A stretch of DNA of 64,000 bases, taken from Mucilaginibacter sp. Lineage in GTDB: Bacteria; Bacteroidota; Bacteroidia; Sphingobacteriales; Sphingobacteriaceae. Below the pieces are notes generated by a model that saw nothing but the letters and a program-made list of their open reading frames with translations, searched no databases and was not told the origin of the DNA. The translations under genes were made by a program, and so were the position numbers. The DNA is taken from contig DASZYQ010000022.1 in assembly GCA_035545315.1 (NCBI GenBank), forward strand, positions 11,913 to 75,912, in the 5' to 3' direction. Shown here piece after piece: positions 2,352 to 16,574 of the stretch (positions within the stretch are counted from its first letter, which is position 1; every line of letters begins with the position of its first letter).

Positions 2352-4022
2352 ATGAAAAAGACACTTTCCCTGTTGCTCGCTGTAAGCCTGCTGCATACTT
2401 GCCTTTCCGCACAACTTTTGGAAGAAAAGAAGAAATTTACCCGTGCGGATACACTGCGCGGTATGCTTACGCCCCTGCGCACTTGTTACGACATTAATTA
2501 CTATCACCTCGACGTTAAATTCGATATCGATAAAAGGTTTATAAGCGGCAGCAATCTTTTCAAATTCACCGCTACGCAAGATTTCAAAAAACTGCAATTT
2601 GACCTGTTTGCCAACCTGAAAGTTGAAAAGGTGGTCTATAAAGATCATGAATTGCCCTTTAAACGCGAATTCAATGCTGTATTCGTTACCTTCCCCAAAA
2701 CCATAAAAAAAGGGAGTCGGGAGGAATTTACCGTTTATTACTCGGGCCATCCAACCATCGCAAAAAATGCGCCCTGGGATGGCGGCGTAGTATTTACCAT
2801 CGATTCAGCAAGCGGAAAGCCCTGGGTAGCCACCGCCTGCGAAGGCATTGGCGCCAGTATTTGGTGGCCGAATAAGGATCATTTAAGCGACGAGGTAGAC
2901 AGTATGCTTATTAGTGTGAGCGTGCCAACCGGGTTGAAAGATGTTTCTAATGGCCGTCTGCGCAAGGTGACCGACCTTGGCGATGGCTATACCCGGTTCG
3001 ACTGGTTTGTGGCAAACCCCATCAATAATTACGATGTTGCAGCCAACATTGCCGACTACACCGAATTTACAGATAGCTACGACGGTGAAAAAGGCAAACT
3101 CGACCTTGATTACTGGGTATTACCTTCCGACCTGGATAAAGCGAAAAAACAATTCGCTGCCAATGTAAAGCCCATGCTCAAATCATTCGAATATTGGTTT
3201 GGGCCCTACCCATTTTATGAAGACAGCTATAAATTGGTCGAAACACCTCACCTGGGTATGGAGCACCAAAGCGCGGTTGCATACGGCAACCATTTTCAAA
3301 ACGGTTATTTAGGTTACGACCTTTCAGGAACCGGCTGGGGAAAGGACTGGGACTACATTGTGGTGCATGAGAGCGGGCATGAATGGTTCGGGAATAACAT
3401 TACAGCTAAGGACCTGGCTGATATGTGGATACACGAAGGCTTTACCTGCTACTCCGAATCGCTTTTTGTGGAAAGCCAGCACGGTAAGCAAGCTGCACAG
3501 GAATACATCTATGGATTACGCCGGGGTATAGCCAACAAACATCCCGTGGTCGGCATTTACAATGTTAACAAAGAAGGCTCGGAGGATATGTATTCCAAGG
3601 GCGCCGTATTGCTGAATATGGTTCGTACCATTATCAATAACGACGACAAATGGCGCGATATACTGCGGGGCCTGAACAAGACTTTTTATCACCAGACCGT
3701 AACTTACAACGACATTATCGGCTACATCAATAAGCAGGCCGGGATGGATCTTTCGCCGGTATTCGACCAGTATTTGCATTATGCTAAGCTACCGACGTTA
3801 CAGGTTAACTGGCAAAATGGCAAGCCGTCGATCAGGTGGATAGCTAACGCCAAAGGCTTCATCATGCCGGTGCTGGTAAGGGTGAAAGGCGGCGAATATC
3901 AATTTATTTCCCCTACGACGGTAGCGAAAACTTTTGATATACCAGGCGCTACGAAAGAAAACCTGCAGGCGGACAACTTTGATTACTATATCCTGCTGTC
4001 GGGAATTAATAAAGGCTATTAA
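2352..4022 (+). CDS. Secreted M1 family zinc aminopeptidase (paralog 1)
   Basis: Signal peptide; LGMEHQ exopeptidase-type motif; HESGHEWFGN...WIHEGF (HExxH-18-E); YSKG catalytic Tyr region. Confidence 0.92.
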   Translation: MKKTLSLLLAVSLLHTCLSAQLLEEKKKFTRADTLRGMLTPLRTCYDINYYHLDVKFDIDKRFISGSNLFKFTATQDFKKLQFDLFANLKVEKVVYKDHELPFKREFNAVFVTFPKTIKKGSREEFTVYYSGHPTIAKNAPWDGGVVFTIDSASGKPWVATACEGIGASIWWPNKDHLSDEVDSMLISVSVPTGLKDVSNGRLRKVTDLGDGYTRFDWFVANPINNYDVAANIADYTEFTDSYDGEKGKLDLDYWVLPSDLDKAKKQFAANVKPMLKSFEYWFGPYPFYEDSYKLVETPHLGMEHQSAVAYGNHFQNGYLGYDLSGTGWGKDWDYIVVHESGHEWFGNNITAKDLADMWIHEGFTCYSESLFVESQHGKQAAQEYIYGLRRGIANKHPVVGIYNVNKEGSEDMYSKGAVLLNMVRTIINNDDKWRDILRGLNKTFYHQTVTYNDIIGYINKQAGMDLSPVFDQYLHYAKLPTLQVNWQNGKPSIRWIANAKGFIMPVLVRVKGGEYQFISPTTVAKTFDIPGATKENLQADNFDYYILLSGINKGY

Positions 4023-4032
4023 TTAAACCACC

Positions 4033-5694
4033 ATGATAAAAAAAGTCTCCCTTCTCACATTAACAGGGGCATTAATCTGCTCGATAGCCTCGGCACAATT
4101 GGGCGCTGATAAAGAAACCTTTACCCGCGCCGATTCGCTGCGTGGATATATGTCGCCGCTGCGCACCTGCTACGATATTAACTTTTATCACCTCGACATC
4201 AAATTCGATATTGATAATAAGTTCATAAGCGGCAACGTACTGTTCAAATTCACGGCAACGACGGACTTTAATAAGCTTCAGTTCGACCTGTTCTCGAACC
4301 TGAAGGTTGAGAAAGTAGTTTATAAGGGGCAGGAATTGCCCTACACCCGGGAATTTAATGCCGTGTTCATTACCTTCCCGCAGATGATAGAAAAGGGCAG
4401 CAAAGATGAGTTTACGGTTTACTATTCCGGAAATCCGACCATTGCGAAGCGCGCACCCTGGGACGGCGGCGTAGTGTTCACCAAAGATTCGGTGGGTAAT
4501 CCATGGGTGGCTACTGCCTGCCAGGGCATGGGAGCCAGCGTATGGTGGCCCGACAAAGACCAGCAGGAAGATGAGGTGGACAGCGCCCTGATCAGTATCA
4601 GTGTGCCGAAGGGCTTGCAGGATGTTTCAAACGGCTGCCTGCGCAAGGTGACTAATTTGAAAGACGGCTATACCCGCTACGACTGGTTTGTGGCCAACCC
4701 GATCAATAATTACGATATCGAAGCCAATATTGGCGTTTATGGCCATTTTTCTGAAGTCTATAACGGCGAAAAAGGAAAACTGACCATGGATTTCTGGCCG
4801 CTGAGGTCCGATTTGGAGAAAGCCAAAAAATGGTGGCCCCGGGATGCCAAGCGTATGCTTGAGGCTTTTGAATACTGGTTCGGGCCATATCCTTTTTACG
4901 AGGATGGTTACAAGCTGATCGAGGCGCCGCATTTAGGCATGGAACATCAGAGCGGCACGGCTTACGGCAATCACTTTCAAAATGGCTACCTGGGCCGCGA
5001 CCTATCCGGCACCGGCTGGGGCCTGAAATGGGATTTCATTACGGTGCACGAAAGCGGGCACGAATGGTTCGGCAACAATATTACTTCCAAAGATTTGGGC
5101 GATATGTGGATACACGAAGGGTTCACCAACTACTCAGAGTCGCTGTTCATCGAGAAATTCTATGGTAAGCAGGCCGGGCAGGAATATGTGCACGGCACAC
5201 GTTTCCTGATCCAAAACGACAAGCCTATCGTCGGTCCGTACAACGTAAACAAGGAAGGCTCAAGCGACATGTATTACAAAGGCGGCAACCTGCTGAACAT
5301 GGTGCGCACGATTATTAATGATGACGAAAAATGGCGCGACATCCTGCGCGGACTGAATAAGACTTTTTACCATAAAACGGTCACATACGATGATATTATC
5401 AATTACATCTGCGACCAATCGGGTAAAGACCTTAAGCCGGTGTTCGATCAGTACCTGCATTACCGCAATTTGCCGATACTGGAATTTATGAACGATCGCA
5501 AAGGTGTATTAACCTGCCGCTGGCAATCGAACGTCAAAGGATTTAATATGCCTGTGCGCGTGAGGGTAAAAGGCGGCGAGTATCAGTTCATCAAACCGAC
5601 CTCGCGTTTTACACCAGTCAATATCGACGGGGCTACGAAGGATAATGTAGAAGTGGATACCTTCAATTATTACATCGGAGTGTTGGTGGACTAA
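4033..5694 (+). CDS. Secreted M1 family zinc aminopeptidase (paralog 2)
   Basis: Same motifs (LGMEHQ, HESGHEWFGN, WIHEGF, YYKG); colinear with the upstream paralog; 10-bp gap. Confidence 0.92.
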   Translation: MIKKVSLLTLTGALICSIASAQLGADKETFTRADSLRGYMSPLRTCYDINFYHLDIKFDIDNKFISGNVLFKFTATTDFNKLQFDLFSNLKVEKVVYKGQELPYTREFNAVFITFPQMIEKGSKDEFTVYYSGNPTIAKRAPWDGGVVFTKDSVGNPWVATACQGMGASVWWPDKDQQEDEVDSALISISVPKGLQDVSNGCLRKVTNLKDGYTRYDWFVANPINNYDIEANIGVYGHFSEVYNGEKGKLTMDFWPLRSDLEKAKKWWPRDAKRMLEAFEYWFGPYPFYEDGYKLIEAPHLGMEHQSGTAYGNHFQNGYLGRDLSGTGWGLKWDFITVHESGHEWFGNNITSKDLGDMWIHEGFTNYSESLFIEKFYGKQAGQEYVHGTRFLIQNDKPIVGPYNVNKEGSSDMYYKGGNLLNMVRTIINDDEKWRDILRGLNKTFYHKTVTYDDIINYICDQSGKDLKPVFDQYLHYRNLPILEFMNDRKGVLTCRWQSNVKGFNMPVRVRVKGGEYQFIKPTSRFTPVNIDGATKDNVEVDTFNYYIGVLVD

Positions 5695-5695
5695 T

Positions 5696-5729
5696 GCCTC
5701 ACCCCAACCCCTCTCCACGGGAGAGAGGC
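5696..5729 (+). repeat. REP-like element
   Basis: GCCTCACCCCAACCCCTCTCCACGGGAGAGAGGC: CCxCACCCxAACCC leader plus purine/pyrimidine hairpin; related copy in opposite orientation at 6557-6590. Confidence 0.65.
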
Positions 5730-5801
5730 TAAATTTCTTTACTATCCCTGCAACCTTTTCCATAAACCGGCGTCTTATTGGGTGTAAAACAACCAAAGAC
5801 C

Positions 5802-6512
5802 ATGAAAATATTGATCAGATCAATGCTGGCGCTCCTGCTCGTTGCGGGAACGTCGTACGCATTTGCGCAGCGGGTGGAAGACCGCCATCTAAGCGGGTTT
5901 AATGCTATTGATGTAGGCGGGCCATATGATGTGCAGCTTACCCAGGGAAATAACGAATCAGTTAAAGTGCAGGCTCCGGATGAGGTAATGGACCATATCA
6001 TTACCGAGGTAGTAAACGGCACGCTGAAAATATACAATAAACACGACGATGGTTTCCATTGGAACGACCTGTTCGGCCACCATAGAAAGATCTTGGTATA
6101 CGTTACCGCCAAAACGGTGAACAGTATAGTAGTGTCAGGTTCGGGCGATGTGGCCTTCAGGGATGGCATTCACAGCGATAAAATGACTTTGCGCGTATCA
6201 GGCTCGGGCGATGTGAACGGCAGGTTAGAAGTGAAGACGCTTGAGGTTGGTATTTCCGGCTCGGGCGACGTAAGCATATCCGGCCATGCGGAAACCTCGG
6301 CTGTACGCGTTAGCGGTTCGGGCGATTATAAAGCACATAACCTGATCACCTCCAATACCGACGTGCATGTAAGCGGCTCAGGCGATGCGTCGATCTATGC
6401 CAGTAATAAAGTGGATGCTTCGGTGTCCGGTTCAGGTGATATTCACTATGCAGGCAACCCGAAAAGCGTTTATAAGTCCAAATCGGGCAGCGGAGATATA
6501 GGCGGGGATTAA
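5802..6512 (+). CDS. Head GIN domain / DUF2807 putative adhesin-like beta-helix protein
   Basis: Signal peptide from ATG 5802; many SGSGD(V/I) repeats. Confidence 0.88.
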   Translation: MKILIRSMLALLLVAGTSYAFAQRVEDRHLSGFNAIDVGGPYDVQLTQGNNESVKVQAPDEVMDHIITEVVNGTLKIYNKHDDGFHWNDLFGHHRKILVYVTAKTVNSIVVSGSGDVAFRDGIHSDKMTLRVSGSGDVNGRLEVKTLEVGISGSGDVSISGHAETSAVRVSGSGDYKAHNLITSNTDVHVSGSGDASIYASNKVDASVSGSGDIHYAGNPKSVYKSKSGSGDIGGD

Positions 6513-6513
6513 A

Positions 6514-6590
6514 GCCCCCTCTCTAAAGTCTCCAAGCGCCTTAGGAAGATTCTATAAAACCCTCCCCTCCGGGGAGGGTTTGGGTGGGGC
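6514..6590 (-). repeat. REP-like doublet between convergent genes; probable bidirectional terminator
   Basis: AAACCCTCCCC-TCC-GGGGAGGGTTT perfect 11-bp stem plus GGGTGGGGC tail; truncated partner GCCCCCTCTCTAAAGTCTCC at 6514. Confidence 0.65.
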
Positions 6591-6592
6591 CA

Positions 6593-7609
6593 CTATTTTA
6601 TCGTCGCTATCTTCCTTCTTCCCAAATCATACGTCACCCTGAAGGCCTCCTGGTTGCTGGTAAAGCCGGGCGTGCGGTGTATGCTGAGAACGAATTGCCC
6701 GGTTAGTCCTCTTGCCCGAAAGGCGTCCCAGATGATATCCAGCCGGTTATAAAACTTCTTTTCGTAAAAGGCGTCGCCATAGTAGATGGTGCTGCCCTGC
6801 CCTGCATAAAACTCATCGAACAGCGCAAACTGGTGCCAGCCCAGGTAAACACTGGCTACGAAACCCTTGGGCAGGTTAAGCCCGGTTAAGCCGCGTGTCC
6901 GCTGGATCGACATCATGGCGCCCGCCTCAACCGACAGCGAATCGAGGAAGGTTTTATGGCTGAAATCCATGCCTATCCGCAACTGGGCGCCCCCGTTGTC
7001 GGTTATTGGATCATCAACCGTAGCGGAACCTGCATCATGCAGTAAGAGAAAATAATAGGTCGCATAAAACGGGTTAAAGGCCGATGGTCGGTACCTGCCC
7101 TGCGAACCGAACAAGAACTGCTCGCGCGCAGTAGCGGTTTGCCGGCTCACCCAATCGATCCAACCCATTTCCATCCAATGGTCGTCCTGGTATCGTGCCA
7201 TTAGCCCTTCGATATTGGGGCGGTAATACATAAGCGTATCATTCAGCAATGCGCGCGGGTAGTTCGATATCAGCCCCTCGCGTGGGAATTCACCGGCGTC
7301 AAAAAGCCAGTGTTTGCCGGTAAAACTATAGTACGCAATCGGGTTTGCCTTTAGAAAATAAGGCTGCGCCCCAAATTCGTGTATCGCGTTGGTGCCCACG
7401 ATAAAGTGGTTCATGCTGTCGATGTTCAGGCCGAAGTCCAACGCAGTGCGGGTACCCGAATACGTGCGCGATCGGGCCACAAAGTCCTTGTATTCCCGGT
7501 TATCCAAAAAGCCGAGGCCCCTAAAATCAACGTCGAGCGTGGTTTGCGCTATCGCTGCGGCGCCCGTCAGGAAAGTAAGAAAAAAGAGTAAGTATAATTT
7601 TTTGATCAT
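6593..7609 (-). CDS. Hypothetical outer-membrane beta-barrel protein
   Basis: Signal peptide ending AIA-Q; aromatic-rich amphipathic strands; 9 bp downstream of the GT39 gene. Confidence 0.7.
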   Translation of the reverse strand: MIKKLYLLFFLTFLTGAAAIAQTTLDVDFRGLGFLDNREYKDFVARSRTYSGTRTALDFGLNIDSMNHFIVGTNAIHEFGAQPYFLKANPIAYYSFTGKHWLFDAGEFPREGLISNYPRALLNDTLMYYRPNIEGLMARYQDDHWMEMGWIDWVSRQTATAREQFLFGSQGRYRPSAFNPFYATYYFLLLHDAGSATVDDPITDNGGAQLRIGMDFSHKTFLDSLSVEAGAMMSIQRTRGLTGLNLPKGFVASVYLGWHQFALFDEFYAGQGSTIYYGDAFYEKKFYNRLDIIWDAFRARGLTGQFVLSIHRTPGFTSNQEAFRVTYDLGRRKIATIK

Positions 7610-7618
7610 GCAATATGC

Positions 7619-9337
7619 TTATTCGACGGTTAAATTTATGATCCGGCTGTTCTTGCTACCGCTGAAAGGGTCGGTACGCAGTGAAAACAACACCGTGTAT
7701 TTACCTCTCTGCGCCGGCGCCGCAAATTTAAAGGTATAATTTGCTTTTTGGCCCGGCTGAAGTTCAATTCGGTGAAAATCGTCGTCCGATGCCTGTACTG
7801 CTATTTCCGCGCCGTCTTTAAACGTACAAGCCTCCAGCGCCACATGGTGTTCATAACCCCTATTGCTGAAACTTATTGCGAACGGATACGGATTTGCTAT
7901 TTGCAGGTTGAACGTCACTTCTTTTCCGGCAGCGGTATGCCGATCGGTCTGATCGGTTTCTATTTTTACCTTCTGGTAGGTCCGCACATCGTTTACCCAG
8001 CCGCCATACCATTTGCCGGCGGCCGTGTTCAGCGTGTCGGCCGAGATGCCGTTTACCGGGTGCTTCGTCAGGAAGTAAGCTTTTTTGCGTTGCATACTAT
8101 CCTCGATGGGCCAGATATCGAATTGCGTCAATCGATAGTATTTTGAGTCGTAGTCGAAACCTTTCGTGCTATTGGTATAGAAATCGTACTTCGATGGATT
8201 CTGAAAACCTTCGTCCATGATCACGTAGTTATTTCCGGCTTTTTCTCTTACGGCTTGCGCCCACCGCTTAAATCCATACTGGCTTTTCACCTGGCCTACC
8301 AGGCTGATCGGCGGCAGGCCGGCGATTATGGAAACCCGCACGAAAACAATAAATACAATATTGATCCATGCCAGCCGGGCAAACCATATCCGTTCTTTTC
8401 CCTCCTGCTTAAAATGGATGAGCGTGAGCATGGCCAGCGGCGCAAAGGCGATGAGCGTCCATTGCGGCTGTACCTCGCCATGGGCGCTGCTGACCAGGAA
8501 AAATACAAAGGTGCCTATACCATTTACCAGCAGGCAGCGAATGAACGCGTCTTTTACCTTTACGGAAAACGCTTTGTAGAACAGGAACCAGCCTATCAGC
8601 GGACCGGCCATCAGCAACTGGCCGGGGAAATAGGTCCAGGTTTGGGAGAAGCTGTAATGGGCGGTGGATTGCTCAAACAAATGGTAATTAACCGATGGAT
8701 AACCATGGCTTACCTGCCACAAAATATGCGGGATGAACAGGATAACCGATACTACGACGATCAGCCAGAAAGACTTCCTGCCCAGTAGCTTTAAATTAGC
8801 CAGCAGCGTAAACCCGACCAGCAATATGCCATGGTATTTGCTGTACAGCAGGCAGGCAATGATGACCGCCAGCAATAGCGCCCATTTGAACTTGTCGTCC
8901 TCCGCATATCTCTGATAGACGAAATAGAACAGCACCGTGAACAGGAACAGCGGTGCATCGGGCGTGGTCATGAAGCCGTAGAGGTGGAAAATGAAGATAC
9001 CTGCAACGACGAGGATAAACCATTTGGCCTGCACACCATATTTTTTGACGATGAGCCACAGCACATACAGCGATAGAGTACTCGACAACACCGTCATGAT
9101 CCGCACACCGAACTCGCTGTGCACCAAACTGTCGCCAATGCGGATAAAGATGGCCACCATGGGCGGGTGGTCGAAATAGCCCCAGTCGAGGAAGCGCGAA
9201 TACAGCCAGTAGTAGGCCTCGTCAGCGTGGATCTCCTGCACGTACGCCTGCAGCAGGTTCAGCGCCGTCCAGCACAACAGGAAATACAGGATAGGCTTGT
9301 TTGATCGTGGCGCTGTATCGGTTGCTGACAATGGCAT
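7619..9337 (-). CDS. Glycosyltransferase family 39 (ArnT/PMT-like) with soluble C-terminal Ig-like domain
   Basis: DEAYYW, WGYFDHPPM, TPDAPL, SKYHG motifs; about 11 TM segments; ATG 9337 supported by the promoter at 9352-9359. Confidence 0.88.
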   Translation of the reverse strand: MPLSATDTAPRSNKPILYFLLCWTALNLLQAYVQEIHADEAYYWLYSRFLDWGYFDHPPMVAIFIRIGDSLVHSEFGVRIMTVLSSTLSLYVLWLIVKKYGVQAKWFILVVAGIFIFHLYGFMTTPDAPLFLFTVLFYFVYQRYAEDDKFKWALLLAVIIACLLYSKYHGILLVGFTLLANLKLLGRKSFWLIVVVSVILFIPHILWQVSHGYPSVNYHLFEQSTAHYSFSQTWTYFPGQLLMAGPLIGWFLFYKAFSVKVKDAFIRCLLVNGIGTFVFFLVSSAHGEVQPQWTLIAFAPLAMLTLIHFKQEGKERIWFARLAWINIVFIVFVRVSIIAGLPPISLVGQVKSQYGFKRWAQAVREKAGNNYVIMDEGFQNPSKYDFYTNSTKGFDYDSKYYRLTQFDIWPIEDSMQRKKAYFLTKHPVNGISADTLNTAAGKWYGGWVNDVRTYQKVKIETDQTDRHTAAGKEVTFNLQIANPYPFAISFSNRGYEHHVALEACTFKDGAEIAVQASDDDFHRIELQPGQKANYTFKFAAPAQRGKYTVLFSLRTDPFSGSKNSRIINLTVE

Positions 9338-9351
9338 GGCGTTATTGTGCC

Positions 9352-9359
9352 CAAATGTA
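9352..9359 (-). promoter_or_regulatory. Bacteroidota housekeeping -7 element
   Basis: TACATTTG matches TAnnTTTG, 14 nt upstream of the GT39 ATG. Confidence 0.6.
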
Positions 9360-9399
9360 GCGATTGTAGGCGATTGGTAGCGCCTGCTGCACCTGAGAT

Positions 9400-9494
9400 G
9401 CCATTTTGGGGCACTTTTGAGCACATTTGGAACACTTTCGAGCTTTTTTTAAGCACTTTTCGTGCACTTTGGAGCCATTTTAGCGCACTTTGGA
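9400..9494. repeat. Degenerate 10-11 bp tandem repeat, consensus GCACTTTKGA
   Basis: Nine units in 95 bp, each with a T-tract. Confidence 0.75.
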
Positions 9495-9643
9495 ACCCGA
9501 AATTGTGCCGTAACTACTTATATTACAGCAACTTACATTAAAATCAAAGAACTTTGCCTTTTGTTATTTTTTCTGCGATATACAACAGGCCCTAACCTTA
9601 CAAGATACGAAAAATTTGGGGGATTTGGAAGGGGAAGTTTGTG

Positions 9644-10078
9644 TCAATGGTCGGGCGCAGCCACTTGACCGGGCGGTAATAAAATGCTCATCAAATTGCA
9701 CAACAACATGACAAAGGCGCTTGATACCCACAGCCAATATCCTAAGCTATGGCTAACGATTTTACTTGGAAGGCCTGCTTCATTAGTAGTTACTGTATGG
9801 AAGAACAAAAATGAAACAGCGATCAACCCTGCGAACAGGCTGCTCAATAATGATAGTTTTGGGCTTTTATTCCATTTGACCCATGAAACCAGAAGAAGGG
9901 GATTTGCAAGCCATATTAAATTACTCACGCCCGAAATTAGCCCTAGCGGGCCAAAAACTAAAGCTAAAAAACCTAATCCGCAAACCCCGGCATCTGTACA
10001 AAACGATGGAAGAAACAGAGCAAAAACAAAAAGAGCAATGCTTAACCACCGGAGGCCTTTTATAACGATTTGGTGCAT
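9644..10078 (-). CDS. Hypothetical membrane protein (about 4 TM)
   Basis: Hydrophobic helices; WLANP and GYWLW motifs; AT-rich relative to flanks. Confidence 0.7.
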   Translation of the reverse strand: MHQIVIKGLRWLSIALFVFALFLPSFCTDAGVCGLGFLALVFGPLGLISGVSNLIWLANPLLLVSWVKWNKSPKLSLLSSLFAGLIAVSFLFFHTVTTNEAGLPSKIVSHSLGYWLWVSSAFVMLLCNLMSILLPPGQVAAPDH

Positions 10079-10157
10079 TTTGTTTGGCGATAGTTTTTAA
10101 ACCGCAGATAAAGTTCCTCTCCGCTGTCCATGGTCTCCAAAGAAGACTACATACATG

Positions 10158-10337
10158 CTAGACCACGTCATTTTTCTTAGTTCCTCTTTTGGGGATTTTT
10201 ATAAATACAAATATAATTAGAACAGCACCGCCTAATTGAATAAGATACTTATAGATGCTTTGATATTGTGGAAACCAATTTGGTATCACAAGGAGCGCAA
10301 ATCCAACCCATAAATTTGCCTTATTGTAAATTTTCAT
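10158..10337 (-). CDS. Small hypothetical membrane protein (2 TM, 59 aa)
   Basis: MKIYNKANLWVGFALLVIPNW...LGGAVLIIFVFIKIPKRGTKK; two hydrophobic segments and a basic tail; ATG 10337 preferred over GTG 10364. Confidence 0.55.
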   Translation of the reverse strand: MKIYNKANLWVGFALLVIPNWFPQYQSIYKYLIQLGGAVLIIFVFIKIPKRGTKKNDVV

Positions 10338-10367
10338 ACCGTCAATAAAGAATTTACTTCCCACGCT

Positions 10368-10449
10368 GTCCGTAGTCTCCCGACTACGGACCTATATGCA
10401 TGTAGTCTCAGACTACATGCATAGCCGTTCGAAGTCAGAGACTTCGAAC
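10368..10449. repeat. Cluster of three perfect REP-like palindromes
   Basis: GTCCGTAGTC-tccc-GACTACGGAC; TATGCATGTAGTC-tca-GACTACATGCATA; GTTCGAAGTC-aga-GACTTCGAAC. Confidence 0.85.
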
Positions 10450-10465
10450 AACGTCAAATAATATT

Positions 10466-12652
10466 TCATTTCCCCAGCGCAAACGCCACATAACTATCCC
10501 CCGATTGCGTATGCAGCTTTCCGCCCCCGCAGGCGATCACCAAATATTCCTTCCCCGCAATATCGTACACCGCGGGCGTGGCAAAACCGGCTGCGGGCAG
10601 TGTGGCTTCCCAAAGCAACTTGCCGTCGCGCTTGTTAAAGGCCCGTATCTTGCCGTCTTTGGTAGCGGCGATAAACACCACTCCTCCTGCTGTCACTACC
10701 GGGCCGCCATAGTTCTCGGTACCGGTATTGGGCCGTCCGGGCTGTGCGAAGGCAGGGTCGTTGCCCAACGGTATGCGCCAAACCATTTTGCCGGTATTCA
10801 GGTCCACAGCGTTCAGCGTGCCCCAGGGCGGCGATATGGCCGGGTAGCCTTCCTTGCTCAGGAATTTATTGTAGCCCGCCATCTCGTATGGAATATCCTG
10901 GTACGGGTCGATGTTTTTGTGTTCGGGCACAAAAGCCGTTTTCCCGGTAGTTTTGTTTTGCGTAATGAAGGCTATGATGGCCTGCCGTTCCTGCGCGCTC
11001 AGTTGTTTGAACGACGGCATCATCCGGCGGCCATTTTGCAGTAGCGAGTCGATCTGCTTGTCTTTATACTTCTTTTCGATACTGATCAGCGAAGGGTAAT
11101 TGCCGGACCCTTCGCGGTTGCGGCCGTGGCAGGTCATACAATTGGCAAGAAACAACCGTTGGCCCGCCTGTTCGAAATCTTCATTCTTTGGCACATTGGC
11201 ATTGCTCTGCGATTCGATCATACTCATCACCCAGGCCATTTCGTTGGCGTTGATGTACATAATCCCGGTGGTTGGGTCGTAAGCCGGACCGCCCCACTCC
11301 GCACCCCCGTCGAACCCGGGGAATATGACCGACGGCTTTTTACCCGGCGGCAAAAACATGCTGCCATAGCGGTAGCCTTTCAGCCGCTGCAGTACCTCGG
11401 CTTTGGAATCGGCGGACAGGTAAGGATTGATGTCCTTGTCGGTCAGCGTTTGCCGGGCAAAAGGCACCGGCAAGGTGGGTATGGGTTGCGTCGGCCAGGG
11501 TTTTTCACCCGCCAGCTCTGAATTGGTAGGCACCGGCGTTTCCTTCACGGGAAACAGTGGCTTCCCGGTCAACCTGTCGAGCACAAAAATAAACCCGTGC
11601 TTGGTGGGCTGCGCCACCGCGTCGATCATTTTGCCGTCGTGCTTCACCGTCACCAGTACCGGAGCGGTCGGCAGGTCCTTATCCCACAGGTCGTGGTGTA
11701 TCACCTGGTAATGCCATATCCTTTTGCCGGTGGCGGCATCCAGCGCTATCACGCAGTTGGCGAACAAGTTGGCGCCTTTGCGCTTTCCGCCATAAAAGTC
11801 ATACACCGCCGACCCGGTCGGCACAAAAAGCATCCCGCTTTTTTCGTCCATGCTAAAACCCGACCAGCTATTGGCCGAACCGATATATTTATAAGCCTCA
11901 GGGTCTTCCCAGGTATTATAACCAAATTCGCCGGGGTAGGGTATGGTGTGAAATATCCATTTCAGCCTGCCGGTACGCACATCATAAGCGCGAACATGGC
12001 CCGGCGCGGCGTCGGCAGTCTCGTTCACACGGCTGCCCACGATGTACAGGTCCTTATAAATTATACCCGGCGAGGTAGCCGTGATGTACATATTTTTGGT
12101 GTCGCGACCCAGGTCGTTATGCAGATCGATCTTGCCGCCGTCGCCAAAAGTCGTGATGAGGTCGCCGGTCAGCGCGTTTACCTCGTAAACGGCCGAACCC
12201 GCGCAATACAGTATACGCTTATCCTTGCCGTCCTCCCAATACGTAACACCGCGGTTATTGTTCATCCCAAAGCTCCCCGCCGCCGAATTCGTATTGCCTG
12301 TCGGGTCGAATATCCAGCGCTGCTCGCCCGTGGCCGCATTCACCGCGAACAGCCGCAGTTTCGGCGTAGTGCCATATAAAAGGCCATTAGCTACGATGGG
12401 ACTGCATTGTATCTGCGAAAAATATTTTACGTCGGCATCGCCGGTGTGGTACGTCCAGGCTACCTGCAGGTTTTTGACATTGGCTGTATCGATCTGGGTT
12501 AGCTTGGAATAGTGCTGTGCCGCCTTCGAGCCGCCGGAAACCCGCCAGAAACTGTCGCCTGAATATAAAACCGAATTATCCGAAGTATGCGATCTGCAGG
12601 AAAATAAAGCAGCGGCGGCCAGGAATAACGCCGCCCGTTTGGGGTTGATCAT
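10466..12652 (-). CDS. PQQ-dependent dehydrogenase (glucose/quinate-type) lipoprotein with inserted cytochrome c domain
   Basis: Lipobox LFSC; Trp-docking propeller motifs (LQVAWTY, HHDLWDKDLP, GGAEWGG, ENYGGP); heme motif CMTCH with RMMPSF Met ligand. Confidence 0.9.
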   Translation of the reverse strand: MINPKRAALFLAAAALFSCRSHTSDNSVLYSGDSFWRVSGGSKAAQHYSKLTQIDTANVKNLQVAWTYHTGDADVKYFSQIQCSPIVANGLLYGTTPKLRLFAVNAATGEQRWIFDPTGNTNSAAGSFGMNNNRGVTYWEDGKDKRILYCAGSAVYEVNALTGDLITTFGDGGKIDLHNDLGRDTKNMYITATSPGIIYKDLYIVGSRVNETADAAPGHVRAYDVRTGRLKWIFHTIPYPGEFGYNTWEDPEAYKYIGSANSWSGFSMDEKSGMLFVPTGSAVYDFYGGKRKGANLFANCVIALDAATGKRIWHYQVIHHDLWDKDLPTAPVLVTVKHDGKMIDAVAQPTKHGFIFVLDRLTGKPLFPVKETPVPTNSELAGEKPWPTQPIPTLPVPFARQTLTDKDINPYLSADSKAEVLQRLKGYRYGSMFLPPGKKPSVIFPGFDGGAEWGGPAYDPTTGIMYINANEMAWVMSMIESQSNANVPKNEDFEQAGQRLFLANCMTCHGRNREGSGNYPSLISIEKKYKDKQIDSLLQNGRRMMPSFKQLSAQERQAIIAFITQNKTTGKTAFVPEHKNIDPYQDIPYEMAGYNKFLSKEGYPAISPPWGTLNAVDLNTGKMVWRIPLGNDPAFAQPGRPNTGTENYGGPVVTAGGVVFIAATKDGKIRAFNKRDGKLLWEATLPAAGFATPAVYDIAGKEYLVIACGGGKLHTQSGDSYVAFALGK

Positions 12653-13204: not shown

Positions 13205-13240
13205 CAACAAAAAACCCGGCGTAACCGGGTTTTAATATTT
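13205..13240. terminator. Bidirectional intrinsic terminator; copy 1 of a direct repeat
   Basis: AAAACCCGG-cgtaa-CCGGGTTTT between convergent genes; first 28 nt identical to 16540-16567. Confidence 0.85.
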
Positions 13241-13261: not shown

Positions 13262-13672
13262 TCATTTCACCACGATGGCCTCATTCAGCACCACATCGCT
13301 TAAAAATCCGGTGCACACGCCCTTCACCATTATCGTCGAATCGTGCATTCGTGGTTTACTGCCGGGCTTCAGGGTACAAAATACATTGGCAAACGGGTCG
13401 CCGCTTTTTAGCGTCAGGGTAATATCACCTTCCTGGTCTTTTTCCTTTTTCAGCACCACACCTTTTATCTCGATGGCCTTGTTTAAATACCTGGCATTGG
13501 CACTTTTTTCATTAGCCTCATAGTCTTTTACGATACGCGCTGCTGATACCACCAGTGCATTTTCATCGGCAACGTTCCGGTGATGCGTTTTTGAATACTG
13601 AAAAACATAATACCACCCGCCTGACAACACGACCAGGAACAGGGCGGCCAAACCTAATAAGATCTTTTTCAT
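13262..13672 (-). CDS. Membrane-anchored OB-fold (tRNA_anti-like) protein
   Basis: N-terminal TM from ATG 13672; YEANEKSANARYLNKAIEIKGVV ... VKGVCTGFLSDVVL. Confidence 0.8.
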   Translation of the reverse strand: MKKILLGLAALFLVVLSGGWYYVFQYSKTHHRNVADENALVVSAARIVKDYEANEKSANARYLNKAIEIKGVVLKKEKDQEGDITLTLKSGDPFANVFCTLKPGSKPRMHDSTIMVKGVCTGFLSDVVLNEAIVVK

Positions 13673-13676
13673 AGCT

Positions 13677-14612
13677 CTACCATTTATTTGATACGTCTTT
13701 GTGTTTCGCCACGGTAAACACCCTTGATATATTGAACCCGAAGTGTACGCCGCCGTTGGCCCAGCGCCCGTCGGTTTGTGTAATAAAACTCTTTTCGTTG
13801 ATGCCCGTCGAATTGGTAAAAAATAACTGGAATACGTGGCCGCCGGTCTCGATATCGAAGCCAACCGATGCCGCGTTATAATATCCTGCCAGGCGCTGAA
13901 ACTGATAATAATATTCGCCGGTAAGGTTTACCCTTTTGGATATCCTCAGCCGGAAACCTGATCCGACCGAATAATAATCGTTAGGCATGCTTGAAGTAGA
14001 TACAATATTGTAGTGCACCATCGTAGGTGAAAATTGCAATGAAAAATAATCGCCGAATTTGCGGGCCAGCAACACCTGGTTCACGTAGGCCAGGTGGTCC
14101 GAATAATTGACCTGGTAGGGTTGCGGCTGATCTTTCAAAGTCGTAAGCACGGTCGTCGATACGATGCTGACCGACAAAGGCATATTCACCTTACCCGTCG
14201 ACTGGCGCAGTACCCGGTATTTAAAAAAACCATCGAACTCTTTATTGTAGGTACTTCGGCCGATCCCGACCTCCAACCGGTTGGATATCCCGTAATCCAT
14301 GCCGATGCGCAAAGTGGCCTGGTCGAGGCCATAAAAATTGTACGAACCCGAATTGACCATGCCAAAGCGGTGCGATATTTTCAGATCTAATATCCCCGCA
14401 CCCGTATTCTCGATGGATTGCCCGTTGATGATACGGGTGGTCTTAAATATCGACGTCGTTATATCCGTTTTATCCGTCTTTTCTTTTTTATCCTGGGCGT
14501 CCTGCATTTTGAACAAATCGACATTTTGGCCATGCAACTTCAAAAAAGTAACGACCAATACAAGCAGCATCGCCCCTCCGCGACGACTCACCGCACACCG
14601 CACCGCTCTCAT
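13677..14612 (-). CDS. DUF5777 family outer-membrane beta-barrel protein
   Basis: FKTTRIINGQS, ISHRFG, YGLDQATLRIG, DIETGGHVFQLFFTN, HFGFNISRVF motifs. Confidence 0.8.
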   Translation of the reverse strand: MRAVRCAVSRRGGAMLLVLVVTFLKLHGQNVDLFKMQDAQDKKEKTDKTDITTSIFKTTRIINGQSIENTGAGILDLKISHRFGMVNSGSYNFYGLDQATLRIGMDYGISNRLEVGIGRSTYNKEFDGFFKYRVLRQSTGKVNMPLSVSIVSTTVLTTLKDQPQPYQVNYSDHLAYVNQVLLARKFGDYFSLQFSPTMVHYNIVSTSSMPNDYYSVGSGFRLRISKRVNLTGEYYYQFQRLAGYYNAASVGFDIETGGHVFQLFFTNSTGINEKSFITQTDGRWANGGVHFGFNISRVFTVAKHKDVSNKW

Positions 14613-14615
14613 ACC

Positions 14616-15155
14616 TTACTCGTATTTGCAATTAACCGAAATCTCAGCCTCTTCCGCTATTTTGGTACCGATATACAGGCCTGTTATACCATAGTCTTTT
14701 ATTTTTATCTTGAATACCCCGCTAATGGCCGGCTTACCCCCGGTAATCTCCATGACGCCCTTGGTGGCCACTTTTTGTGAAACACCGTGTATGGTCAATG
14801 TCCCGTCCACATTCACCGGGTATTTGCCGTCCTTCGAAAAATCGATGGAGGAAGCATTGGTCACATAACCCCTGAATTCTGCCTTGGGGATCTTCGAACT
14901 TTCCAGGTAGTTCTCATTAAAATGGTCCTCCATTAACTGGTTTGGAAACTTAAAACTTTTGATCAGTGCGCTAAACACGATCTGGCCGGTTTTGTCGACC
15001 ATTTTGCTGTCGACCTGGTTATTCACGGCTACGACATTCTCCAACGGACTGCTTGCGTTGAATTTGATCTGGCCGGTTTTGGTAGAAAATAGTTTTTGGG
15101 CATGCACCTGCAGGCAGGCGCCTGCCAGGGCAAGGAACAGGATGGGCTTTTTCAT
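14616..15155 (-). CDS. YceI family lipid/isoprenoid-binding protein
   Basis: Signal peptide; LMEDHFNENYLES..PKAEF and GTLTIHGV motifs. Confidence 0.9.
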   Translation of the reverse strand: MKKPILFLALAGACLQVHAQKLFSTKTGQIKFNASSPLENVVAVNNQVDSKMVDKTGQIVFSALIKSFKFPNQLMEDHFNENYLESSKIPKAEFRGYVTNASSIDFSKDGKYPVNVDGTLTIHGVSQKVATKGVMEITGGKPAISGVFKIKIKDYGITGLYIGTKIAEEAEISVNCKYE

Positions 15156-15167
15156 AGTTTTAGGGTT

Positions 15168-15542
15168 CTAGTTATTAGGGGTACCGTTATTGATCCATGT
15201 TTGAATAGTTTTTATCTGGCACGACGAAAGCTGTACTGCATTTAAAGGCATAGCCGCAATCCCGCCTGTGTGGCTGATCGAATTCATTAACTGGCCATTG
15301 GCTGCATAAACCTTTAGCCCGGCGTAGGTATCAAGTTTTATCCCGCCGCCCGCCGCAGCCGAGCCGCCATGACAGCTATAACAATTGGCGCTTAAAATGC
15401 CGGTTACGGTGGCGCTGTAAGTAACGCTCGCTACATTGCAGCCGCTGGTTGAATTGGATTGCGGGTACGACAGGTTCGCATGGTCGTAGTAGCAACCTGT
15501 TGCCAGCAACGATATCGATACGAGGGTGATCAAATATTTCAT
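15168..15542 (-). CDS. Mono-heme cytochrome c lipoprotein
   Basis: Lipobox LATGC from ATG 15542; CYSCH heme motif; distal AMP Met. Confidence 0.85.
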   Translation of the reverse strand: MKYLITLVSISLLATGCYYDHANLSYPQSNSTSGCNVASVTYSATVTGILSANCYSCHGGSAAAGGGIKLDTYAGLKVYAANGQLMNSISHTGGIAAMPLNAVQLSSCQIKTIQTWINNGTPNN

Positions 15543-15553
15543 TGCCACGATCG

Positions 15554-16303
15554 TTATTGCGGGCAGCCGCTGTTCAGCCATTTGGTTATTTGCGTTACCT
15601 GGCAATCGGGTAGCTTGCCCGACTGCGGCATATTCATAGCTGAGCTTGCCGAGGTATAATTAATAGCATTAAGAAATGTTGCTTTTAATGACGTGCCTGC
15701 CGCTTTTGCGCTGGCGTAGTTACTCAGGACAACGTTGCCCGAACCGGGCGCAACGCCATGGCAGCCGTTGCAATAGGTGGCGAATATTTGCGATATGCCG
15801 TTAGTATAAGTGGTCTTGGTGGTATCGCAGGTAGTTATTGTACAGGTATTGTTCGTGGCGCCTTCGGTTATCCATTTGGAGATGGTAGCCAGTTGGGCCG
15901 ATGTTAATTGCGGCGAATTTCGCGGCGGCATTTCACCATCGGTAATGATCTTGTAATACTTGCTCTCGCCGGGATTACCCGGTGAGATCCCCCGCATAAT
16001 GTTGTTGTAGTTGGTCAACACCAGGTCTTCCTGCGCTGACGCAGCGTCGTGGCAGCCGGGACTTGCACAATAGGTTTGAAATAAGGGCAATACGTCGGTT
16101 TGAAAACAAACGCCGCTGGAAGAGGTCGTACCGGAACCCGTTCCACTGCCGGTGCCGGACCCACTACCCGAATTCGAGCCGGTGCCTGATGTATTTCCAG
16201 AAGTTCCGCTTGCGGAGGGTTTGATCACGTCGTGCGTACAGGAATATAGCACGACAAATAAAACAGCGATTAACGCTGCTAAAATTAACAGGGGCTTTTT
16301 CAT
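15554..16303 (-). CDS. Di-heme cytochrome c lipoprotein with Gly/Ser/Thr tether
   Basis: Lipobox LYSC; GSGSGTGSGTGSG linker; CASPGCH (CX4CH) and CNGCH motifs, each followed by an MP motif. Confidence 0.85.
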   Translation of the reverse strand: MKKPLLILAALIAVLFVVLYSCTHDVIKPSASGTSGNTSGTGSNSGSGSGTGSGTGSGTTSSSGVCFQTDVLPLFQTYCASPGCHDAASAQEDLVLTNYNNIMRGISPGNPGESKYYKIITDGEMPPRNSPQLTSAQLATISKWITEGATNNTCTITTCDTTKTTYTNGISQIFATYCNGCHGVAPGSGNVVLSNYASAKAAGTSLKATFLNAINYTSASSAMNMPQSGKLPDCQVTQITKWLNSGCPQ

Positions 16304-16388: not shown

Positions 16389-16539
16389 GGGCACGGTAAC
16401 AGGAAAGTTACAATTTAACTAACGAAACATTTTATACTAAATTATATCGAGTTATGAAATTTTTTAAGCACAGGACAAAAAAGCAAATGCGCATAAGTTA
16501 ATAATTAGATCAATTGCTAAGTTATACGCTGGTTTTGGG

Positions 16540-16574
16540 CAACAAAAAACCCGGCGTAACCGGGTTTAATATTT
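16540..16574 (-). terminator. sucB terminator; copy 2 of the direct repeat
   Basis: CAACAAAAAACCCGGCGTAACCGGGTTTAATATTT; gives a U-tract on the minus strand downstream of the sucB stop. Confidence 0.85.

Follow-up and report, generated by a model that had tools for sequence, protein, structure and literature searches.

In Burkholderia cenocepacia, the BcnA-LcoA system (yceI-yceJ of E. coli) pairs a YceI lipocalin with a cytochrome b561, and the model proposed for it has the lipocalin holding a quinone that the cytochrome cycles between redox states, so as to act on envelope lipids (PMC9113575). In Cellvibrio japonicus, the proteins Cbp2D and Cbp2E combine an X158 YceI-like domain with X183/X132 c-type cytochrome domains, and the isolated cytochrome domain delivers electrons to lytic polysaccharide monooxygenases (PMC8981238). 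According to work cited in parts of these two reports, YceI-family proteins bind polyisoprenoids or ubiquinone-8 (PMC9113575, PMC8981238). A third relevant protein, FoxE, is encoded by the foxEYZ operon of Rhodobacter ferrooxidans SW2, acts as a dihaem Fe(II) oxidoreductase and has been solved structurally (PDB 5mab/5mvo; PMC10654088). Here we analyze a stretch of 64,000 nt from a soil Mucilaginibacter sp. (contig DASZYQ010000022.1, positions 11,913 to 75,912), referred to throughout as the window, in which five genes on the minus strand (13262-16303) encode two c-type cytochrome lipoproteins, a YceI-family protein, a DUF5777 outer-membrane barrel and an OB-fold protein. Judging from gene content and conservation, these five genes probably constitute an outer-membrane-associated redox module.

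Open reading frame (ORF) calling over the window resolved the 13262-16303 interval into five ORFs on the minus strand, here designated g1 to g5. The predicted products are a FoxE-like dihaem c-type cytochrome lipoprotein (g1, 15554-16303, 249 aa), a monohaem c-type cytochrome lipoprotein (g2, 15168-15542, 124 aa from MKYLIT), a soluble periplasmic YceI-family protein of a divergent subfamily (g3, 14616-15155, 179 aa), a DUF5777 outer-membrane beta-barrel (g4, 13677-14612, 311 aa) and an OB-fold protein with one N-terminal transmembrane helix (g5, 13262-13672, 136 aa from MKKILL). A preliminary description of the locus had reported five same-strand genes, separated by gaps of 4-12 bp, for these five types of product. 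The genes and their product types are borne out by the ORFs, the Pfam matches and the topology signals, but the intergenic gaps measure 11, 12, 3 and 4 bp and thus range from 3 to 12 bp. The nearest homologues are found in Mucilaginibacter.

Among the described systems, the module would work most like BcnA-LcoA and Cbp2D, by analogy of a YceI domain operating with cytochromes outside the cytoplasm. With BcnA-LcoA it has in common a secreted YceI-family lipid binder that is genetically coupled to a cytochrome, but its cytochromes are c-type lipoproteins, not an inner-membrane b561, and the barrel and the OB-fold anchor are additions. Identity with BcnA-LcoA was discarded, since neither a b561 nor any other membrane cytochrome is encoded in the operon. 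The two also differ in quinone class, which is ubiquinone in BcnA-LcoA and menaquinone in the Bacteroidota that harbor the module. The likeness to Cbp2D lies in the union of one quinone-binding domain of YceI-like type and two single-haem c-type domains within one extracytoplasmic unit. Cbp2D, however, unites its several domains in one secreted polypeptide, which has a CBM2 domain and no barrel, whereas the module is divided among separate genes and includes no carbohydrate-binding part. Searches with g1 against the sequences of solved structures returned no chain named Cbp2D or X183. The module belongs in kind with known envelope systems in which c-type cytochromes are teamed with YceI or with a barrel of the outer membrane, and there is a real chance that its mechanism is new.

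The strongest argument for a role in electron transfer, drawn from comparison of gene neighborhoods, comes from the redox partners of the paralogous modules in the same genome. This 4.9-Mb genome encodes three DUF5777 proteins and seven YceI proteins; each of the DUF5777 genes (3/3) adjoins a YceI gene, and the three YceI copies so placed are the most divergent in the genome. Every DUF5777 gene also stands beside a redox protein: the c-type cytochromes in the window, a Rieske lipoprotein in the module termed C41, and cytochromes together with FeS/NrfD proteins in the module termed C8. In C41 (L004, G000:C41:198000-214000, 5293-9309, plus strand), a Rieske [2Fe-2S] lipoprotein replaces the cytochromes, and the genes run in the order extracytoplasmic function (ECF) sigma factor, OMP_b-brl_2 protein, YceI, DUF5777 and Rieske lipoprotein; downstream lie a Usp-like gene, whose weak Pfam match does not reach the cut-off, and a Crp/Fnr-type gene. 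The C8 paralogue is a ten-gene cluster (L005, G000:C8:280000-296000, 3119-10454, minus strand) in which a YceI-like lipoprotein, a CX4CH lipoprotein, DUF5777, a class I cytochrome c and a 327-aa lipoprotein are followed by a small protein with a twin-arginine translocation (Tat) signal, a Tat 4Fe-4S protein, an NrfD protein and a 301-aa anchored protein.

Searches of NCBIfam matched the C8 Tat 4Fe-4S protein best to DsrO (183 bits), then to TtrB and QrcC, and the NrfD protein best to DsrP and QrcD, with scores for both proteins below every equivalog cut-off. DsrO/DsrP and QrcC/QrcD are periplasmic FeS and NrfD-type subunits that link menaquinone to periplasmic cytochromes. The C8 pair thus resembles the corresponding subunits of DsrMKJOP and Qrc, as well as alternative complex III; it forms part of a paralogous operon, distinct from the one in the window, and differs from those systems in being accompanied by no catalytic or multihaem subunit. 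Among 11 further loci from 10 genomes, 8 preserve the C8-type linkage of a cytochrome lipoprotein and barrel with the FeS, NrfD, anchored-protein and cytochrome c genes, and two C8-type loci add hexa- and heptahaem cytochromes. Because three kinds of electron carrier accompany the YceI/barrel pair, and one form of the family is wired to a quinone-interacting module, the business of this family appears to be electron transfer.

To assess conservation, we analyzed 83 loci, comprising the three copies in this genome and the 80 best DUF5777 loci from a set of one-genome-per-species contigs (80 species). These 80 loci derive from Sphingobacteriales, Chitinophagales, Saprospirales, Cytophagales, Flavobacteriales and environmental metagenome-assembled genomes (MAGs) labeled 'Bacteroidales', and they represent the closest orthologues, so that the co-occurrence figures describe this orthologous group and not DUF5777 proteins at large. 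ORFs were called at each locus and all neighbors were clustered blindly. The preliminary description had named rare co-occurrence of DUF5777 with cytochromes as an outcome that would speak against its proposal; the survey placed the cytochrome cluster (134 proteins) near the barrel in 74 of the 83 loci. YceI was likewise present in 74/83, and the OB-fold protein in 58/83, a count that leaves out g5 itself, which was missed by the crude ORF caller. Gene order is stereotyped, with a dihaem cytochrome of ~240 aa (one CX4CH and one CXXCH motif), a monohaem cytochrome of ~125 aa, YceI and the barrel in succession, and the OB-fold gene located either before YceI or after the barrel. A LytTR response regulator was detected in 38/83 loci and a propeller/Y_Y_Y/His_kinase sensor in 32/83. 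Such regularity indicates that the linkage of these genes is not a product of chance.

The gene set is conserved across aerobic Bacteroidota. DUF5777 itself occurs in 127 of a sample of 301 complete Bacteroidota genomes (~40%), frequently with more than one copy per genome, whereas 14 control genomes had none. Its distribution shows a strong family bias, which ranges from 45/49, 15/16 and 17/22 in some families to 0/63 and 0/14 in others. Literature searches for 'DUF5777' retrieved nothing among the 8.4 million papers and preprints covered, and those on YceI in Bacteroidetes or Flavobacterium yielded nothing relevant to the module. The proposal of a conserved, uncharacterized envelope redox module in Bacteroidota is well supported by the gene order, by the redox partners at all three paralogues, by the paralogue carrying the quinone module and by natural YceI-barrel fusions described below. 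Several less frequent neighbors, each present in few loci, offer clues to the end acceptor. In 6 Saprospiraceae/Lewinellaceae loci (cluster c11; e.g., L031, 1562-5470), a protein of ~1300 aa secreted by the type IX secretion system (T9SS), with PKD domains and two plastocyanin/azurin-type cupredoxin domains, is encoded directly upstream of the cytochrome genes on the same strand, a hint that acceptors may lie at the surface. In 6 loci the neighbors include a dihaem cytochrome c peroxidase (CCP_MauG), hinting at oxidant defence. Four loci have CusB/CusA-type genes beside the module and four a TonB receptor, the Cus genes together with the FoxE homology of g1 hinting at metals. In one Mucilaginibacter MAG (L007, 4943-8831), the cytochrome pair is duplicated within the operon, the order being dihaem, monohaem, YceI, dihaem, monohaem, barrel and OB-fold gene.

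The two cytochromes differ in how readily they are recognized by domain models. g1 matches the Pfam families PSCyt1 (33.2 bits, cut-off 22) and Cytochrome_CBB3 (42.6 bits), whereas g2 matches PSCyt1 (20.7 bits, cut-off 22) and Cytochrome_CBB3 just below their cut-offs; NCBIfam searches with the five products gave sub-threshold matches only, for instance of g1 to the LIC11213 lipoprotein family. The g1 product opens with the lipobox LYSC (Cys22) and a Gly/Ser/Thr tether of ~35 residues (residues ~29-63), which is disordered in the AlphaFold2 model (predicted local distance difference test score, pLDDT, below 50, against 80 overall). Domain A follows with the motif CASPGCH (C79/C84/H85) and the distal M125-P126, and domain B with CNGCH (C178/C181/H182) and M225-P226. 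A dihaem lipoprotein on a Gly/Ser tether is thus confirmed as first described, with the correction that its first haem motif is CX4CH and not CXXCH. In g2, the lipobox ATGC precedes a conserved CYYD..LxYP N-terminus and the motif CYSCH, followed by Met-Pro.

Across 35 g1 orthologues (29-76% identity), both haem Cys/Cys/His sets, both Met-Pro pairs, the lipid Cys, three further Cys and a WI..GA helix are invariant, and the tethers are variable low-complexity segments of ~20-60 residues. The histidine two residues past the lipidated Cys (His24, in a C-x-H arrangement) is retained in 35/35 orthologues despite the variable tether behind it, and could be a docking, sorting or ligand residue. The g2 orthologues keep CYYD.(E/A)E.LYP directly after the lipid Cys, and CXXCH and CX4CH swap at one position among them. 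There are two haem motifs in g1, one in g2 and one to three in the orthologues, and the genome encodes a CcsA-type cytochrome c maturation protein. With haem motif and distal ligand conserved family-wide, g1 and g2 are predicted to be c-type cytochromes. Neither has the canonical Bacteroidota lipoprotein export signal, which is C-X-K-(D/E)2 or S-D-D-D-D at +2 to +6 (PMC5080379): g1 reads C-T-H-D-V and g2 C-Y-Y-D-H-A-N, with one acidic residue each. Many g2 orthologues are more acidic after the lipid Cys than the g2 of the window (e.g., CYYDVEEE), and SprB surface repeats are joined to CX4CH domains in some proteins.

A profile of the g1 family searched against the sequences of solved structures recovered one relative, FoxE (5mab, E = 2.7e-5, 27 bits), which the single g1 sequence reached at E = 0.045 only. 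The motifs ILPLF, C..CH, LTTY..IM, PG.P.S, RMP and WI.QGA are common to FoxE and the g1 family, and we take the g1 cytochromes to be remote FoxE homologues on these grounds. Foldseek, run on the apo g1 model, found no solved structure at E < 1, its best hits being OmcF and cytochrome c6 at E ~2. FoxE and g1 are alike in their two haem domains, their Met distal ligand and their common sequence motifs. FoxE, however, is a proteobacterial protein, soluble in the periplasm, whose gene is grouped with foxY and foxZ, whereas g1 is a tethered lipoprotein with a CX4CH first motif and its gene lies with those for YceI, the barrel and the OB-fold protein. No PQQ or DMT family recurs in the 83 loci that might correspond to FoxY (a pyrroloquinoline quinone, PQQ, protein) or FoxZ (a membrane transporter), and assignment to a fox operon was rejected, with no FoxY or FoxZ conserved alongside the module.

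The g3 product matches Pfam YceI (PF04264) at 1.2e-14, with 54.8-55.4 bits against a gathering score of 23.7, and its export signal is of the signal-peptidase-I type (VHA|QK; the orthologues end in xAQ|K). It is divergent, scoring ~55 bits where the four canonical YceI proteins of the genome score 114-177, and the only solved-structure sequence that it matched was the YceI chain 5ixg (E = 0.006). The g5 product matches the tRNA_anti-like OB fold (PF12869) at 5e-18, with 65.4 bits against a gathering score of 23.5. Its N-terminal transmembrane helix places it outside the cytoplasm, and it is therefore not expected to bind tRNA. The family (59 sequences) conserves one Cys in a CTG motif, and no solved structural relative of g5 was found. 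A CcmE-like haem chaperone was considered for g5 and dropped, there being no conserved His or Tyr across the 59 sequences.

The g4 product carries a signal peptide and matches DUF5777 (PF19089) over its full length (1-247 of 247) at 2e-89, with 299.5 bits against a cut-off of 23.1. Its AlphaFold model, built from a 41-sequence alignment (pLDDT 74.5), shows a 12-stranded barrel whose periplasmic turns are short and whose outer loops are longer. Foldseek neighbors were FapF, NanC, OmpG and NalP, with TM-scores of 0.4-0.68 and identities of 8-13%, and the modeled fold is accordingly that of a generic 12-14-strand barrel. Among the residues that stay invariant in paralogues at 29% identity, H81-R82-F83 sits where strand 1 ends on the outer side, and H259 belongs to the periplasmic ETGGH turn; K131, Q137, K185, R221, Y234, N267 and R297 are others. 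The pattern of strand alternation puts both H81 and H259 in a lipid-facing register at opposite membrane interfaces. A haem or metal site built from the invariant histidines is unsupported for this reason; in the model, a bis-His haem formed by H81 and H259 is unlikely, and the two residues look more like lateral docking points.

Fusions bear on the arrangement of the parts. Using the barrel region within an artificial 684-aa concatenated query, and retaining candidates of at least 376 aa, we obtained 52 clusters. Two of these are natural YceI-DUF5777 fusions, P0164 (456 aa) and P0169 (460 aa), in both of which YceI is N-terminal and is followed by a short linker and by the [FY]K..R.IN.QS.E segment that opens the barrel domain. 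Outer-membrane barrels have their N-terminus in the periplasm, and YceI in these fusions is accordingly placed at the periplasmic face of the barrel. About 36 of the 52 clusters are tandem double DUF5777 barrels in one ORF of 569-660 aa (P0121-P0155; L132, 2873-4693; Panacibacter and others), as is G001 of the surveyed sample, which suggests that DUF5777 barrels work as side-by-side pairs. Cytochrome-barrel fusions were absent: none of the 52 clusters of at least 376 aa contained a cytochrome Pfam domain, the 13 sequences that were read contained no haem motif, and long open frames in six genomes proved to be separate genes without such a fusion.

The preliminary description had likened the locus to porin-cytochrome complexes, and the comparison does not hold in its details. 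MtrCAB, PioAB/MtoAB, Geobacter Pcc and Cyc2 do resemble the module in encoding a barrel with c-type cytochromes, and the paralogous C8 form is linked to an inner-membrane quinol module. MtrB has 26 strands and Cyc2 about 16. The barrel of the module, by contrast, has 12 strands and is FapF/NanC-like, and in place of a deca- or octahaem wire the cytochromes provide three single-haem domains; the YceI and OB-fold partners have no counterpart in the conduits. An Mtr/Pio/Pcc-type complex was rejected accordingly, with 12 strands against the ~20-26 needed and three haems against cytochromes of 8-10, and so was Cyc2, the genes being separate and not fused and the barrel 12-stranded. Of the trans-envelope electron or quinone relay envisaged in the same description, the porin-cytochrome conduit is thus abandoned, and a quinone relay through YceI fits better.

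Taken together, these observations favor an outer-membrane-associated redox module in which the three His/Met haem domains of g1 and g2 (one of them CX4CH) would trade electrons one at a time with the respiratory chain on its periplasmic side. The soluble YceI protein would dock at the periplasmic face of the 12-stranded barrel, holding an isoprenoid lipid, most likely menaquinone/menaquinol, as the redox partner of the cytochromes at the outer membrane. The barrel would serve as the membrane anchor or gate of the complex and not as a sheath around a cytochrome, with the transmembrane-anchored OB-fold protein as an accessory tether, and electrons would on balance move between the pool of quinones and cytochromes on one side and lipids of the outer membrane or acceptors at the surface on the other. 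Haem and quinone occupancy, docking, direction of flow and end acceptor are all inferred here, and for the specific YceI-quinone mechanism we see not quite an even chance.

Several observations weigh against this scheme. Sphingobacteriia use menaquinone, and His/Met haems of the class I type are usually far more positive than menaquinone. Transfer from the cytochromes to a YceI-bound menaquinone would therefore run uphill, and the haem potentials favor, on thermodynamic grounds, flow from quinol to cytochrome or radical chemistry. The g3 product is a divergent member of the YceI family (54.8 bits). In addition, the strand alternation pattern turns R82, R102, K131, K185, R221, R297 and several Asp/Glu toward the lumen of g4, and so polar and charged a lumen is unlike that of a lipid channel. 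The operon itself encodes no quinol dehydrogenase, a surface redox protein is likewise missing from its vicinity, and surface exposure of g1 and g2 is unsupported in view of their missing export signals. In a more novel reading, YceI would shuttle menaquinol through the periplasm to the barrel, where the FoxE-like cytochromes would oxidize it and pass the electrons to outer-membrane or T9SS-displayed surface redox proteins; we consider this unlikely. If true, it would amount to a wiring of the diderm envelope in which a protein-bound lipid does the work that multihaem wires do in Shewanella and Geobacter, and one that many aerobic Bacteroidota would share.

Other functions can be envisaged for the same genes. 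An unlikely one, though suggested by several features, is an envelope antioxidant system analogous to BcnA-LcoA, in which YceI, at the outer membrane, would take up lipids that are peroxidised or in radical form, or would hold a quinol, and the c-type cytochromes would supply the reducing electrons in place of cytochrome b561. The pairing of YceI with a cytochrome is the defining genomic signature of BcnA-LcoA (PMC9113575), the sole solved-structure sequence match of g3 is to a YceI chain, and the reduction of peroxyl radicals by ferrous cytochrome c would be thermodynamically easy. The six CCP_MauG neighbors, the ECF sigma factor, Usp-like and Crp/Fnr-type genes adjoining the C41 paralogue and the restriction of the module to some Bacteroidota families also agree with such a role, which nevertheless leaves unexplained a dedicated outer-membrane barrel, the T9SS cupredoxin partners and the quinone-module paralogue with its multihaem neighbors, and for which no linked cytochrome b561 or aldehyde reductase was found. 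The charged barrel lumen, and the invariant His, Asp and Tyr residues near both of its rims, would suit instead a metal redox module, with the barrel as a small polar channel for Fe, Mn or Cu and FoxE-like cytochromes that oxidize or reduce the metal in the periplasm for uptake or detoxification. The single solved relative of g1 is an Fe(II)-oxidizing dihaem cytochrome (PMC10654088), and CusB/CusA-type genes and TonB receptors occur in four loci each. Homology of a cytochrome domain, however, leaves its substrate unfixed, YceI and the OB-fold protein would be without a role, and metal-related neighbors are rare, with no Fur-type context or metal transporter conserved with the module, so that we regard this explanation as quite unlikely.

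That the 12-stranded structural neighbors FapF and NalP pass an extended polypeptide raises the prospect of a true conduit across the outer membrane, in which the g1 tether or the g2 N-terminus would thread the barrel and display a haem domain at the surface, or the invariant histidines of the barrel would themselves hold a haem. Low-complexity tethers of 20-60 residues do recur among the g1 orthologues, fusions of some CX4CH domains to SprB surface repeats exist, and g2 orthologues are often acidic at +4 to +8, like the lipoprotein export signal of Bacteroidota (PMC5080379). The window itself argues otherwise: THDV in g1 and YYDHAN in g2 contain a single acidic residue and mismatch C-X-K-(D/E)2 or SDDDD, H81 and H259 face the lipid at opposite interfaces and cannot ligate one haem, and the screen of long DUF5777 proteins yielded no cytochrome-barrel fusion. 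We accordingly hold a conduit to be improbable. Least credible is a function without redox chemistry, such as lipid or isoprenoid transport or maintenance of the outer membrane, carried out by cytochrome-like domains that have lost their haem. The position of g2 just below the Pfam cut-offs, the atypical CX4CH of g1 and the lack of a significant solved-structure match for the g1 model could be read in this manner, but the invariance of the Cys/Cys/His sets and of the distal Met-Pro in 35 orthologues at 29-76% identity, the interchange of CXXCH and CX4CH at one position of the g2 orthologues and the use of Rieske and FeS partners by the paralogues make it very improbable.

In soil, freshwater and the sea, Bacteroidota dominate among the degraders, and we know of no work on how, or whether, they pass electrons to the outer membrane or the cell surface. 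If the module is an electron route, it would bear on redox chemistry outside the cell, for example iron and humic turnover, superoxide production and the supply of electrons to surface copper or haem enzymes, as well as on the defence of the envelope against oxidative stress. It would also provide a function for three large families whose role is vague or unassigned, namely DUF5777, the PSCyt1/FoxE-like mini-cytochromes and a subfamily of YceI.

The boundaries of the operon are marked by two hairpins on the minus strand, one located after sucB and upstream of the operon (16540-16567, AAACCCGGTTACGCCGGGTTTTTTGTTG), where it would terminate the sucAB unit, and the other after g5 (13205-13232). 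Both are 28 nt long, 100% identical (repeat family D3) and followed by a T-run. Given a terminator hairpin after sucB and another after g5, the five genes are read as an independent transcription unit downstream of sucAB. The presence of the identical 28-nt hairpin (CAACAAAAAACCCGGCGTAACCGGGTTT on the plus strand) on both sides of the operon could mean that the five genes entered behind sucB as a cassette, or that a repeated terminator element was used again. A perfect inverted repeat, GTAAC-N6-GTTAC (16396-16411, minus strand), lies ~100 nt upstream of the g1 start as a candidate operator or promoter element. It has a single match within the window and is kept upstream of the g1 orthologues in two Mucilaginibacter relatives (L006, L007), and it may be an operator. 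Its use as a regulon marker was discarded, there being no genome-wide enrichment (6 sites versus 4 for the reversed control).

A PQQ-dependent dehydrogenase lipoprotein of 728 aa (10466-12652, minus strand; PF01011, 4e-191; Cytochrome_CBB3, 2e-12), with a cytochrome c domain inserted in the propeller, is encoded 600 bp from the operon, behind a DinB_2 gene on the opposite strand. It was considered as a FoxY-like partner and rejected, its position not being conserved in relatives. This dehydrogenase is probably unrelated to the operon, and it is a possible electron donor to periplasmic cytochromes.

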